Assembly: GCA_041662525.1 (NCBI GenBank) | Contig: JBAZSF010000003.1 | Span: 14,187 to 78,186 of the forward strand | Origin: Minisyncoccota bacterium | GTDB taxonomy: Bacteria > Patescibacteriota > Minisyncoccia > Phycocordibacterales > UBA9973 | Length of the DNA: 64,000 nt | Direction of reading: 5' to 3' | Shown here: positions 10,932-16,571 of the stretch, piece by piece | Position numbering within the stretch: the first letter of the stretch is position 1 | Layout of the letters: each line of letters begins with the position of its first letter | Translations under genes and position numbers: made by a program | Notes under the pieces: generated by a model | Seen by the model: only the letters and a program-made list of their open reading frames with translations | Databases searched by the model: none | What the model was told of the DNA's origin: nothing

Positions 10932-11921
10932 TCATAGTCCACCAATAACAGATATCCCTGACCTTCCTGACCTTTGGCAGTCATAACACATACCGTTATC
11001 AATAAATACTGAAGTTGGACTATGAATGTAAGAGTTACCGCAACTTATGCATTTTCTTGCACTTACATAAGCAATATTTTGTGAACCTAATCCAGAAAAC
11101 ATATTGCTAATAGGAGATGTTTCCGAAGAAATTACATAAGTCAAACCTGATTTTGGGGGTATGCTACGAATAACAGTGGGCGGACTATAAACACTATCAG
11201 CACTATGCCATACAATGTTACCAAATTTGTTTTCTTGCTCAATAATCTTATCACTTATAATTTTTTTCTTTTCAATTGTATTGATAAACTCACCTAAAGA
11301 TGTGTAAAGAACAATACTTTTACCAGTGTGGTCTTCCCACTCTTTTTTAAGTAGTTTTTTTATTACCTGTTGTCCTTTTTCTACATCAGAATAGTCTGAA
11401 TCTTTAGCAATAATGGTAAGCTTTTCTTTTTTTATGCCCACCTTTAAAGTTTCCCATATTATTGCATCACCCTTCTTACTATCTTTCTTTGGCGGAAGAT
11501 TTTTAAAAAATCTTTTTTCTGCATTATCTAAAATTTCATCATTATCTTCAATAAAAGTTGCCAATAAAAATAATTCCTCAAAAATTTTTTCTAATTCAGC
11601 AATATTCAACTCAAAACTCTTAAAGCGTTCTTTTGTCAATTCTTTTAGTTCTTTATTTATTGATTCAATTTTTGAGATGATTTGTTTGCTGTCTTTACTC
11701 AAGCCATCTGGCACTGAAATTTGAATTTCTTGGGAAACTTTTTCTCTTTCTTCTTCAATCTTCCTAGTAGAATGTTTTAAATACTCCTGATGCATTTGCC
11801 TAGGAACAACTAAATCAATCTTCTTCTCCTTTATTAGATTTTTCAGTTTCTTGAAAGAATCTAAGTCAGTTTTAGAACTTAAATAGTATATCCATATATT
11901 GGTATCTATAAACAATTTCAT
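10932..11921 (-). CDS. PIN-like domain protein with C-terminal Cys cluster
   Basis: N-terminal MKLFIDTNIWIYY (PIN-type acidic motif) and a second LTIIAKDSDY segment; C-terminal CISCGNS...CYDCQ. Confidence 0.5.
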   Translation of the reverse strand: MKLFIDTNIWIYYLSSKTDLDSFKKLKNLIKEKKIDLVVPRQMHQEYLKHSTRKIEEEREKVSQEIQISVPDGLSKDSKQIISKIESINKELKELTKERFKSFELNIAELEKIFEELFLLATFIEDNDEILDNAEKRFFKNLPPKKDSKKGDAIIWETLKVGIKKEKLTIIAKDSDYSDVEKGQQVIKKLLKKEWEDHTGKSIVLYTSLGEFINTIEKKKIISDKIIEQENKFGNIVWHSADSVYSPPTVIRSIPPKSGLTYVISSETSPISNMFSGLGSQNIAYVSARKCISCGNSYIHSPTSVFIDNGMCYDCQRSGRSGISVIGGL

Positions 11922-12050
11922 TGTGGTTTAATTTTACTCTTTACGCCCTAGATAGCAAATAGTTGTTTAATTATTACCTATGGTTATATTTATGATATAA
12001 GGAATAATATTAACTAATTGTTCCATATTTTCTTTAAAATTCTTCCTAGA

Positions 12051-13169
12051 TTATTTTTTTATTTTATCAGGATTATGCCAACGAAAAGCTCTTCTAAAAC
12101 CAGCGTCCTCAGCTTCTCTTACAGTTACACAATAAAACTCACCTTTATGTTTTTCTATTTTTACATTATCATATTGCTGGTCAAATGGTAGATGATAAAT
12201 CTTTTCTCTATTCACTGTAGAAATATTACACTTTATTGAAGGATATTCATTTTGCATTTTAAAATTTTCTTTCAAATCAATCCTTAGTTCATTGGCAAAT
12301 CTTCTGGCTAAATCAGACAGCTTAGTAGCTGTATAAAATATTGCCTGCACTTTTTTCTCTGGATTTTCATCTTTATATTGAAAAACTGTTCCAAAAAACT
12401 GGAAGATATGTTTTTCATAAATAGTTTTAAATTGAGACCAATTTTTACATTGAATAACTATAAAATCGTTTCCTTTTTGACAAATTAAGTCACGCCCTAA
12501 GTCTTCGTATCCTTTAAAAATTCCAACATATTCGACATCGTAACCTTCTTGCTCAAAAAGATAACCTACATATCTTTCGTAAATTCTTCCAATAAGCCAT
12601 TTGGATTTGGGTCTTTTCCAGTATCTATCCAAAGCCATCTGATTTCTCTCCACGCTAGGCAACTTTCTATATTCTTCTTTTGTTAAATATTTCGTTGTCT
12701 CATCTTGTAATTCTTCTTCAGAATATTCTTTATAAAGTTCCTTTTCCTGCTCAGTAGCAATATCGAGCTCCTCTTTAAAATCAATTAGAAATGGAGCTAA
12801 ATTTTCATAATATTCTATGATGTATTGAGCAATCTTTTTCTCTTTCTCCGCTTTACGTCTCAATAATGACTGTTGTTTAACAATTTCCGCACTGGATAAC
12901 GCTTGGTGTTTCTTTGTGCTTAAATAATATACAATCTCATTTTCTTGTAAAGTAAAAAGTTCATCATAAGCTTTTGCAAGCCAAGGAAAACCTATTTGTC
13001 TCTCCTTTGCCATCTGAATAACCCCCTCTTCTAAGGTTTTATACCAAGAAATTTTTGAATCTAAAATTTTTGTTTCTTCTCCTGCTTCACTAAAAAATGA
13101 AGCCCTTTCACTTCTAATTATAAAGAGGAGGTCTTCTAACTCTTTTTTTTTATCTTCGTAATATCCCAT
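12051..13169 (-). CDS. Mrr-type (PD-(D/E)xK) restriction endonuclease-domain protein
   Basis: C-terminal VGYLFEQEGYDVEYVGIFKGYEDLGRDLICQKGNDFIVIQCKNW matches the Mrr catalytic-domain pattern (D...QCK); the N-terminal half is E/K-rich and helical. Confidence 0.55.
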   Translation of the reverse strand: MGYYEDKKKELEDLLFIIRSERASFFSEAGEETKILDSKISWYKTLEEGVIQMAKERQIGFPWLAKAYDELFTLQENEIVYYLSTKKHQALSSAEIVKQQSLLRRKAEKEKKIAQYIIEYYENLAPFLIDFKEELDIATEQEKELYKEYSEEELQDETTKYLTKEEYRKLPSVERNQMALDRYWKRPKSKWLIGRIYERYVGYLFEQEGYDVEYVGIFKGYEDLGRDLICQKGNDFIVIQCKNWSQFKTIYEKHIFQFFGTVFQYKDENPEKKVQAIFYTATKLSDLARRFANELRIDLKENFKMQNEYPSIKCNISTVNREKIYHLPFDQQYDNVKIEKHKGEFYCVTVREAEDAGFRRAFRWHNPDKIKK

Positions 13170-16053: not shown

Positions 16054-16094
16054 ATCTCTCATAATGTAATATATTACAAATTAAGAATTAAAAA

Positions 16095-16571
16095 ATGAGT
16101 GTGGATTCAGAAGAAAAATTAGAAAATGGAAATTGTGCGGGATGGATTGTTTTAATCTTTCTAATTCTAATTTTTTCTTTTAATGGAGATAAAAGAGAGG
16201 AAAAAAGGAAATATGTAGGGATAGATGAAGAAACTAAAAAAGAAAATACACTTGACCGTGATGAAGCTATTTTAGACTATTGGTATGAAATTAAAGATTA
16301 TGTAAATGGCACAGTAATGGTAAATGCTTGTTCATCTGGAAGTGGTGGTTGTTATGATTTAGATGCTGATATATCAGGTGGAGTGATAGATGAATTATAT
16401 TTTGATAACGGTGGCTATCTTTATTTTTCTGCTGATATAGAAGACGATGGTTCTGCTTCGGATTATGACCAAAATGGTAATAATTGGGATTTTTACATTA
16501 ATATGGATTCTTCTATTGTTAATAATGCAATTGATGATTGGGCTAGTGATAATGATTACACTGTATATTAA
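16095..16571 (+). CDS. small acidic membrane-anchored protein
   Basis: 158 aa; TM helix WIVLIFLILIFSF; D/G/S-rich acidic tail. Confidence 0.4.
   Translation: MSVDSEEKLENGNCAGWIVLIFLILIFSFNGDKREEKRKYVGIDEETKKENTLDRDEAILDYWYEIKDYVNGTVMVNACSSGSGGCYDLDADISGGVIDELYFDNGGYLYFSADIEDDGSASDYDQNGNNWDFYINMDSSIVNNAIDDWASDNDYTVY

Follow-up and report, generated by a model that had tools for sequence, protein, structure and literature searches.

Bacteria of the candidate phyla radiation (CPR) generally carry few of the characterised defence systems. A 64,000-nucleotide stretch of a Minisyncoccota genome (GenBank assembly GCA_041662525.1, contig JBAZSF010000003.1, positions 14,187 to 78,186; referred to below as the window) contains, on a recombinase-associated island, a tightly packed cluster of five open reading frames (ORFs) at positions 10932-16571. 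Their products, designated PIN329, Mrr372, ZnR123, big774 and acid158, include several with nuclease folds, and an earlier note made from the sequence alone had proposed that they form one undescribed defence module. The question raised by this locus is whether the five genes act together or reached the island separately. Comparison with related loci makes it fairly probable that the region is mosaic-island cargo, composed of three independent and exchangeable nuclease units (big774, the ZnR123/Mrr372 pair and PIN329) with the functions proposed for them below, and an unrelated small membrane protein, acid158. The cluster is plausible defence-island cargo, and big774 and the ZnR/Mrr pair are plausible as two candidate new defence families. 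Their defence function, substrates and triggers are put forward here as proposals, within general kinds of protein that are already known: single proteins combining sensor and nuclease, membrane-tethered nucleases and solo PIN toxins.

Independent exchange of the cluster genes

DNA homology between the window and related islands is gene-sized. The best match of big774 is a Candidatus Nomurabacteria protein (92% amino acid (aa) identity), and the DNA that two Nomurabacteria islands (L001 and L005) share with the window is limited to the big774 gene with 62 nucleotides (nt) upstream and 39 nt downstream, at 91% nt identity, plus a few short backbone segments within 9569-10897. These islands sit at a tRNA-Asn gene, and their recombinase is only about 22% identical to that of the window. 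In both, 608 bp that contain a 110-aa ORF of no relation to the cluster take the place of the 2.77-kb stretch carrying the PIN, Mrr and ZnR genes (10898-13666). In addition, the place of the acid158 gene is taken in L001 by a reverse transcriptase gene (12378-13730 of that locus, minus strand), the next gene downstream of the 92%-identical big774 homologue. In a census of 110 ORFs that included three RVT_1 proteins, one of the three, most likely the product of this gene, scored 2e-126 against DRT2. Another CPR island (L053/L054) has only the ZnR/Mrr cassette in common with the window (80% nt identity over 1,549 nt by blastn, with limits some 20 nt beyond the two genes). Herein, the pair is 86% identical at the aa level and is followed by a DUF4145 gene where the window has the PIN gene. 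Altogether, homology to related islands ends within 20-60 nt of each unit.

Gene content leads to the same picture. When PIN329, Mrr372, ZnR123 and acid158 were searched by tblastn against 38 loci containing big774 homologues, none of the four was found, and the surroundings of 34 big774 homologues are free of the other cluster genes out to 10 kb. Because DNA homology is gene-sized, these searches were negative and PIN329 homologues occur as solo genes, the cluster resolves into three independent units and an orphan membrane protein. The idea of one multi-gene module is accordingly abandoned, since big774, the ZnR/Mrr pair and the PIN gene are each found elsewhere without the others; only the link between ZnR123 and Mrr372, which had been pointed out before, proved to be a real conserved pairing. 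Such exchange of single-gene cassettes among CPR islands built on tRNA genes and serine recombinases is useful when mining these islands for more cargo.

The description of the individual genes in the earlier note was upheld. The five ORFs lie at exactly the coordinates it gave and contain the motifs it named, and since each of them except acid158 has many homologues, they are not chance ORFs. Searches of Pfam 2025, NCBIfam 2026, PADLOC 2023 (v2.0) and PHROGs identified a PIN_12 domain in the PIN-like protein with its cysteine cluster (9.4e-17), a Zn_ribbon_Top1 domain (1.7e-12) in the membrane-anchored partner with its hydrophobic N-terminus, and an Mrr_cat domain (1.4e-10) in the nuclease encoded 2 nt away. 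Equally, no methyltransferase, helicase or ATPase was detected in the five ORFs with Pfam, PADLOC or NCBIfam, and the association of the nuclease-fold genes with a recombinase was borne out by Resolvase and Recombinase domains beside tRNA-Ala. The cluster also failed to match any named defence system, as had been stated: Pfam and NCBIfam returned generic domains only, the best PADLOC E-values were 0.012 or worse for six ORFs (the five of the cluster and the ORF at 10413-10730), and PADLOC gave no match at 1e-3 among five distant big774 homologues.

The big774 family

The AlphaFold2 model of big774 is confident (pLDDT 88, pTM 0.84) and resolves the domains listed in Table 1. In 50 homologues, the four zinc-ribbon cysteines (C548, C551, C568 and C571) and the nuclease residues D640, E660 and K662 are invariant, which substantiates the CxxC...CxxC and D...ExK segments recognised earlier in this divergently transcribed protein. 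Structure prediction, which had been suggested as a check, upheld the PD-(D/E)xK assignment for the C-terminal end: its fold is close to those of FokI, N.BspD6I and other restriction endonucleases, and also to the nuclease end of Can1, Can2 and Card1. The N-terminal part of about 540 aa found no close relative among Protein Data Bank (PDB) structures and contains no CARF domain, so that big774 resembles CARF effectors at its nuclease end only, and the first two-thirds of the protein are without close PDB precedent. Sequence searches of the PDB, with single sequences and with profiles, gave trivial zinc-ribbon matches only. Conserved motifs in the N-terminal part (GGxxNPxIP at 39-47, G220..G224..D231 and W236-N-L-R-A240) may mark pockets within the first and second alpha/beta domains.

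The family is large and widely spread. A word-indexed search gave 79 homologues, and an exhaustive profile search gave 4,926 family clusters (at 50% identity) with E <= 1e-3, including 1,382 at <= 1e-30; the best-scoring 150 cluster hits are almost all full length, at about 750-790 aa. Matches in genomes are patchy and extend over Patescibacteria, Pacearchaeota, Proteobacteria, Acidobacteriota, Nitrospirales, Bacteroidota, Planctomycetia, Chlamydiae and others. The family lacks a model in Pfam, NCBIfam and PADLOC, and weak matches to Pfam Card1_endonuc were obtained for 5 of 50 members.

The big774 homologues occur as solo genes, and no neighbouring gene is conserved across their loci. Genes of mobile elements and of defence nevertheless abound in these variable surroundings. 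Mobile elements are represented by serine and tyrosine recombinases, TrwB/TraG and conjugation genes. Defence-related neighbours include DRT2, an EcoRI restriction-modification (RM) system, type II and III methyltransferases, LmuB, PDC-S13, Schlafen/AlbA, PrlF/YhaV and an Abi protein; furthermore, SNF2 proteins scoring as DrmD/BrxH/HmaA, a DrmA-like gene and an HmaB-like methylase were found, as well as an ATPase and S8 peptidase pair beside a homologue on a Bradyrhizobium plasmid.

Individual loci show distinct arrangements. In L028 (3486-12187), a distant homologue stands in an apparent operon with an HmaB-like methyltransferase, a 166-aa ORF and an SNF2 helicase. In L027 (98-7346), Lamassu LmuB lies upstream of the homologue and a type III-like methyltransferase downstream, and L006 (575-5286) combines the homologue with an Xre-type helix-turn-helix (HTH) gene, an N4/N6 methyltransferase and a 375-aa PD-ExK-like protein.

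Given this architecture, big774 may be a self-contained enzyme, analogous to single-protein restriction-like immune nucleases, in which a zinc ribbon and a Can/Card1/FokI-type PD-(D/E)xK nuclease would be placed under the control of an N-terminal region of novel fold that serves in sensing or recognition. That region would recognise a feature of foreign DNA or a signal of infection and then license DNA cleavage. The concept is that of Shedu (SduA, DUF4263), in which a PD-(D/E)xK nuclease works under variable N-terminal sensors as a single gene in defence islands; however, neither big774 nor the 50 family members match DUF4263/SduA in Pfam or PADLOC, and both the architecture and the nearest structural relatives differ. 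If big774 is an immune nuclease, a function would be assigned to thousands of proteins that now lack a Pfam, NCBIfam or PADLOC model, and its N-terminal region would represent a sensing or recognition module of a new kind.

The ZnR123/Mrr372 pair

Mrr372 carries the Pfam Mrr_cat domain (PF04471) between a conserved N-terminal region and a C-terminal segment resembling the NCBIfam 'sunset' domain (25.7 bits against a cut-off of 27). Its homologues number more than 2,700, the best 120 of which share 63-86% identity. Across 29 sequences of the family D227 and Q240-C-K242 are invariant, as are very many other positions. The first 190 residues match neither Mrr_N nor any other winged-helix model in Pfam or NCBIfam, and a profile search against PDB sequences was empty; a literature search on the sunset domain and on the combination of Mrr_cat with Zn_ribbon_Top1 found nothing relevant. 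Compared with Escherichia coli Mrr and type IV enzymes, Mrr372 shares the Mrr_cat core with its D...QxK signature but has a different, highly conserved N-terminal region in place of the winged-helix domain, and possesses in addition the sunset domain and an obligatory membrane partner.

The partner ZnR123 is a basic protein (isoelectric point (pI) 9.9) with a hydrophobic N-terminal segment (KD19 2.9) and a Zn_ribbon_Top1 domain at aa 89-123. In each of the five other CPR contexts examined, the Mrr gene directly follows a small gene, with a 4-nt overlap or a 2-nt gap. All four partners that were translated (97-153 aa) are homologous to one another and repeat the hydrophobic N-terminal helix, the basic helix and the Topo-I zinc ribbon. 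Moreover, the database protein P0112 is a fusion of the ZnR and Mrr proteins, and in homologues on Hymenobacter plasmids (42% identical) the nuclease has its own transmembrane helix at the N-terminus. Because the layout of the partner recurs and such fused and membrane-spanning nucleases exist, membrane anchoring appears to be a conserved property of the family. No third gene is conserved after the pair. Its surroundings vary: serine-recombinase islands in the window and L053, a Gabija-like OLD and UvrD pair, a methyltransferase and an integrase in L050, and a position after an Xre-type HTH gene in L051.

A mode of action can be proposed by analogy with SNIPE, a membrane-bound protein with DUF4041 and GIY-YIG domains that cuts phage DNA during injection, and whose anchor keeps the nuclease from the chromosome, so that membrane tethering provides self/non-self discrimination (PMC13190303). 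ZnR123 would anchor a DNA-binding zinc ribbon of the Topo-I type at the cytoplasmic face of the membrane and partner the Mrr-like nuclease. The tether would thereby keep Mrr372 off the chromosome and position it where foreign DNA enters, making the pair an entry-blocking nuclease. The features that would be shared with SNIPE are a predicted single-pass N-terminal membrane anchor, one or more DNA-binding modules and a predicted cytoplasmic nuclease, with the anchor fused to the nuclease in some relatives (P0112 and the Hymenobacter proteins). In contrast, the nuclease is of the Mrr_cat PD-(D/E)xK type and not GIY-YIG, DUF4041 is absent, a Topo-I zinc ribbon and a sunset domain are present, and in CPR bacteria the system is split over two polypeptides. 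Since the domains are unrelated, the pair may be said to work like SNIPE, as an analogue and not a homologue or member of that family. If it acts by tethering, the SNIPE strategy of spatial self/non-self discrimination at the point of DNA entry would have evolved independently with another nuclease fold, and would operate in CPR bacteria, a group in which little is understood of defence against phages.

Weighing defence against other roles

Several observations weigh against reading the cluster as separate units of defence cargo. For big774, ordinary metabolic neighbours are also frequent among its homologues, and about six independent lineages have methyltransferases close to a homologue, in some cases in what look like operons. 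Because homologues sit in or beside methyltransferase operons in several lineages, the family may represent a restriction subunit with RM-like subtypes rather than an autonomous sensor-nuclease. Under this alternative, big774 would be the endonuclease of an RM-like system, either type II/IIS-like or associated with DISARM/Hma, and the window copy would be an orphan or a type IV modification-dependent enzyme, for which no cognate methylase would be required. The kinship of its nuclease fold with FokI, N.BspD6I and other restriction endonucleases fits this view, as do operon-like arrangements in L006, L008 and L010 (HTH, methyltransferase, 375-aa protein, big774), L027 (big774, then the type III-like methyltransferase) and L028 (methyltransferase, 166-aa ORF, SNF2, big774). 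However, for the majority of homologues, the window copy among them, no methyltransferase lies nearby, and methyltransferases are in any case common in defence islands. A classical RM system requires an adjacent cognate methyltransferase; none is encoded by the five ORFs, and tblastn with seven methyltransferases from homologous loci found nothing in the 64-kb window. Furthermore, no known modified-base reader (SRA, EVE, YTH or Mrr_N) was detected. A restriction endonuclease is considered unlikely on this balance, though for some lineages the role of restriction subunit is a serious alternative, and a self-contained immune nuclease remains the preferred reading of big774.

For the ZnR/Mrr pair, the unusually high conservation of the Mrr372 family is atypical of fast-evolving defence genes, and in L039 the pair lies among housekeeping genes, downstream of ComEC, NDK and FtsZ. 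These features would suit a role outside immunity, either as an addiction cassette resembling a toxin-antitoxin (TA) system or as a CPR nuclease that processes DNA imported at the membrane, in competence or for the scavenging of nucleotides. The addiction variant is also in keeping with the overlap of the small upstream gene with the nuclease gene, as in TA operons, and with the position of the pair among HepT/MNT and HicB modules in L041. Nevertheless, the context differs in every genome examined and involves recombinase or integrase islands in three cases, the pair is missing from the syntenic position in L001, Hymenobacter plasmids carry homologues, and a membrane-anchored DNA-binding partner is unlike known antitoxins. 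A function outside immunity is thus judged improbable, and the tethered entry-blocking nuclease is retained as the favoured proposal.

The independence of the units meets a further point of this kind in the 9-bp direct repeat CTAAGGTGG, which marks both junctions of the PIN-Mrr-ZnR stretch missing from L001, its right copy lying at the left edge of the big774 cassette. The two copies could be a target-site duplication or recombination microhomology, and could also mean that the three genes arrived jointly. This bracketing, the tight packing on one island and the 2-nt spacing of the ZnR and Mrr genes are what a single integrated system, with all five proteins acting together, would have in its favour. 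Genomic contexts and the limits of DNA homology largely refute it: the four other proteins have no homologues near the big774 relatives surveyed, the closest of those relatives has other neighbours, and the closest Mrr pair precedes DUF4145 and not a PIN gene, whose homologues are solo. Such joint action is therefore regarded as very improbable. Finally, it is hardly credible that big774 is a cyclic-oligonucleotide-activated CARF-nuclease effector like Can1, Can2 and Card1, with which it shares the nuclease domain, because no CARF model in Pfam or PADLOC matches it, the window contains no CRISPR-like array, and no cas10 or cyclase (the type III CRISPR-Cas or cyclic-nucleotide-synthase association of these effectors) appears among the family matches listed when 228 ORFs neighbouring homologues at 33 loci were surveyed.

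Beyond independent cargo, a more far-reaching reading is possible, although it is held only tentatively. Two undescribed immune nucleases would then lie side by side, big774 as a large cross-domain family of single proteins (about 5,000 clusters) whose 540-aa tandem alpha/beta sensor would be a new arrangement of folds, and ZnR/Mrr as a PD-(D/E)xK analogue of SNIPE that is widespread in CPR bacteria.

PIN329 and acid158

PIN329 matches Pfam PIN_12 (PF16289, DUF4935-type) over its full length. Its PIN domain contains a helical insert and is followed by a low-complexity linker, variable among homologues, and a C-terminal CxxC..CxxC zinc ribbon. Among its 16 homologues, D6, E46, D152, D174 and D176 are invariant. 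DUF4935 genes, which belong to the VapC-like PIN domains, are reported to be usually mono-cistronic (Matelska et al., 2017; PMC5499597), and PIN329 shares with this group the acidic residues, the long helical insert and the mono-cistronic state, its homologues in L043 and L044 being solo genes in unrelated contexts; it differs in bearing the linker and the zinc ribbon. The conserved acidic residues also recall the PIN toxin of VapBC modules, but no small ORF or antitoxin-like neighbour adjoins the gene, the upstream gene being that of Mrr372, 129 nt away, and the match to NCBIfam VapC scores 13, well short of the cut-off of 80. PIN329 is probably a stand-alone conflict RNase or DNase that joins a DUF4935-type PIN domain to a zinc ribbon.

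The small acidic membrane protein described earlier was confirmed in acid158, which has a pI of 4.05, one hydrophobic segment (predicted single-pass) and an internal repeat. General library scans gave no family match and the 38 related loci contain no counterpart, no dedicated homologue search having been made. It is absent beside the 91% nt-identical big774 gene of L001 and gives no sign of linkage to any neighbour.

Island setting and backbone elements

With tRNA-Ala and the recombinase on the left, and a DsrC-like gene (17469-17801, past the cluster the first that could be assigned to a family) and a shift in G+C content on the right (from about 0.30 to 0.36-0.43), the island is placed at about 7.8-17.4 kb of a genome that resembles those of Paceibacteria and Nomurabacteria within the CPR. 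The features of the region are collected in Table 1.

Table 1. Positions of the cluster genes, cassettes and island features in the window, with the domains of the encoded proteins (aa, amino acid positions).
Feature	Position	Strand	Description
tRNA-Ala(TGC)	7691-7766	+	ARAGORN and Rfam; island begins at tRNA 3' end
Large serine recombinase	7702-9254	-	Pfam Resolvase 5.2e-34, Recombinase 2.5e-07; overlaps 3' end of tRNA-Ala
LOOT RNA	10314-10433	+	Rfam RF03000, 81 bits
9-bp direct repeat CTAAGGTGG	10902-10910 (left copy), 13666-13674 (right copy)	+	Only two copies in 64 kb; 0.25 expected
PIN329 gene	10932-11921	-	329 aa; solo gene
ZnR123 + Mrr372 two-gene cassette	12030-13559	-	Extent of DNA homology to other CPR island
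Mrr372 gene	12051-13169	-	372 aa
Mrr372, N-terminal region	aa 1-190		Conserved
Mrr372, Mrr_cat core	aa 197-299		D227, Q240-C-K242
Mrr372, 'sunset'	aa 312-361		
ZnR123 gene	13172-13543	-	123 aa; 2 nt upstream of Mrr372 gene
ZnR123, layout			N-terminal transmembrane helix (predicted), basic juxtamembrane helix, C-terminal Topo-I-type C4 zinc ribbon
big774 cassette	13667-16092	+	Extent of 91% nt identity to Nomurabacteria islands L001/L005 (blastn)
big774 gene	13729-16053	+	774 aa; divergent from ZnR123 gene, 185-bp spacer between
big774, tandem alpha/beta (Rossmann/Toprim-like)	aa 1-320		
big774, beta-rich	aa 323-430		
big774, helical	aa 432-536		
big774, C4 zinc ribbon	aa 540-576		
big774, PD-(D/E)xK nuclease	aa 577-765		D640, E660, K662
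acid158 gene	16095-16571	+	158 aa

The serine recombinase is broken into two ORFs in different frames, separated by a 29-nt gap, with the Resolvase domain at 8658-9254 and the Recombinase domain at 7702-8628; this split probably reflects an assembly error or else a frameshift, which would have immobilised the island. When attL/attR sites were sought as direct repeats of the 3' end of tRNA-Ala, no second copy was found within the window, as is expected for a serine recombinase. A viral origin of the cargo was considered and rejected, as big774 and Mrr372 have no match among phage GenBank records, IMG/VR gave two weak loci for big774 and none for Mrr372, and a Foldseek search of BFVD returned nothing meaningful.

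LOOT RNA was examined as a possible partner of big774. Copies scoring 55-81 bits overall are found in the window, L001 (8247-8372), L020 (5625-5742), L026 (6962-7090) and L043 (3430-3555, minus strand), and a serine recombinase lies close by in four of these five CPR islands (the window, L001, L020 and L043). The RNA is upstream of big774 on the same strand at four CPR loci, but it is also present in L043, an island without big774, and absent from six non-CPR big774 loci. Its distribution thus tracks the type of island, and LOOT RNA may be a backbone element of this CPR island family with no part in the nuclease cassettes.

Other elements were noted in and around the island. Two inverted SAM-I riboswitch-like aptamers, at 9564-9666 (minus strand) and 9866-9969 (plus strand), occupy an intergenic region of the island with scores of 44.6 bits, which narrowly exceeds the gathering threshold, and 39.5 bits. 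Opposite them lie small ORFs and the recombinase and not methionine or SAM genes, and a related copy is found in L001 at about 7594-7781. Between the acid158 and DsrC-like genes, about 900 bp (16572-17468) are without a convincing ORF; this stretch contains a strong terminator-like hairpin (16810-16845) and an L20-leader-like match below threshold (16737-16854, 27 bits). Further to the right, a 37/74-nt tandem repeat directly follows tRNA-Thr (region 39575-39798) and overlaps its 3' end (2.2-3.6 copies, 76-93% matches), and may be another integration scar. To the left of the island, a tRNA-Asn(GTT) gene (6919-7567, minus strand) is split into a 5' exon at 7567-7534 and a 3' exon at 6957-6919 by a 576-nt group I intron (7533-6958; Rfam match 6965-7261, 68 bits) containing an HNH endonuclease ORF (7174-7524). 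When joined, the exons form a tRNA of 73 nt that is almost identical to the uninterrupted gene of L001.

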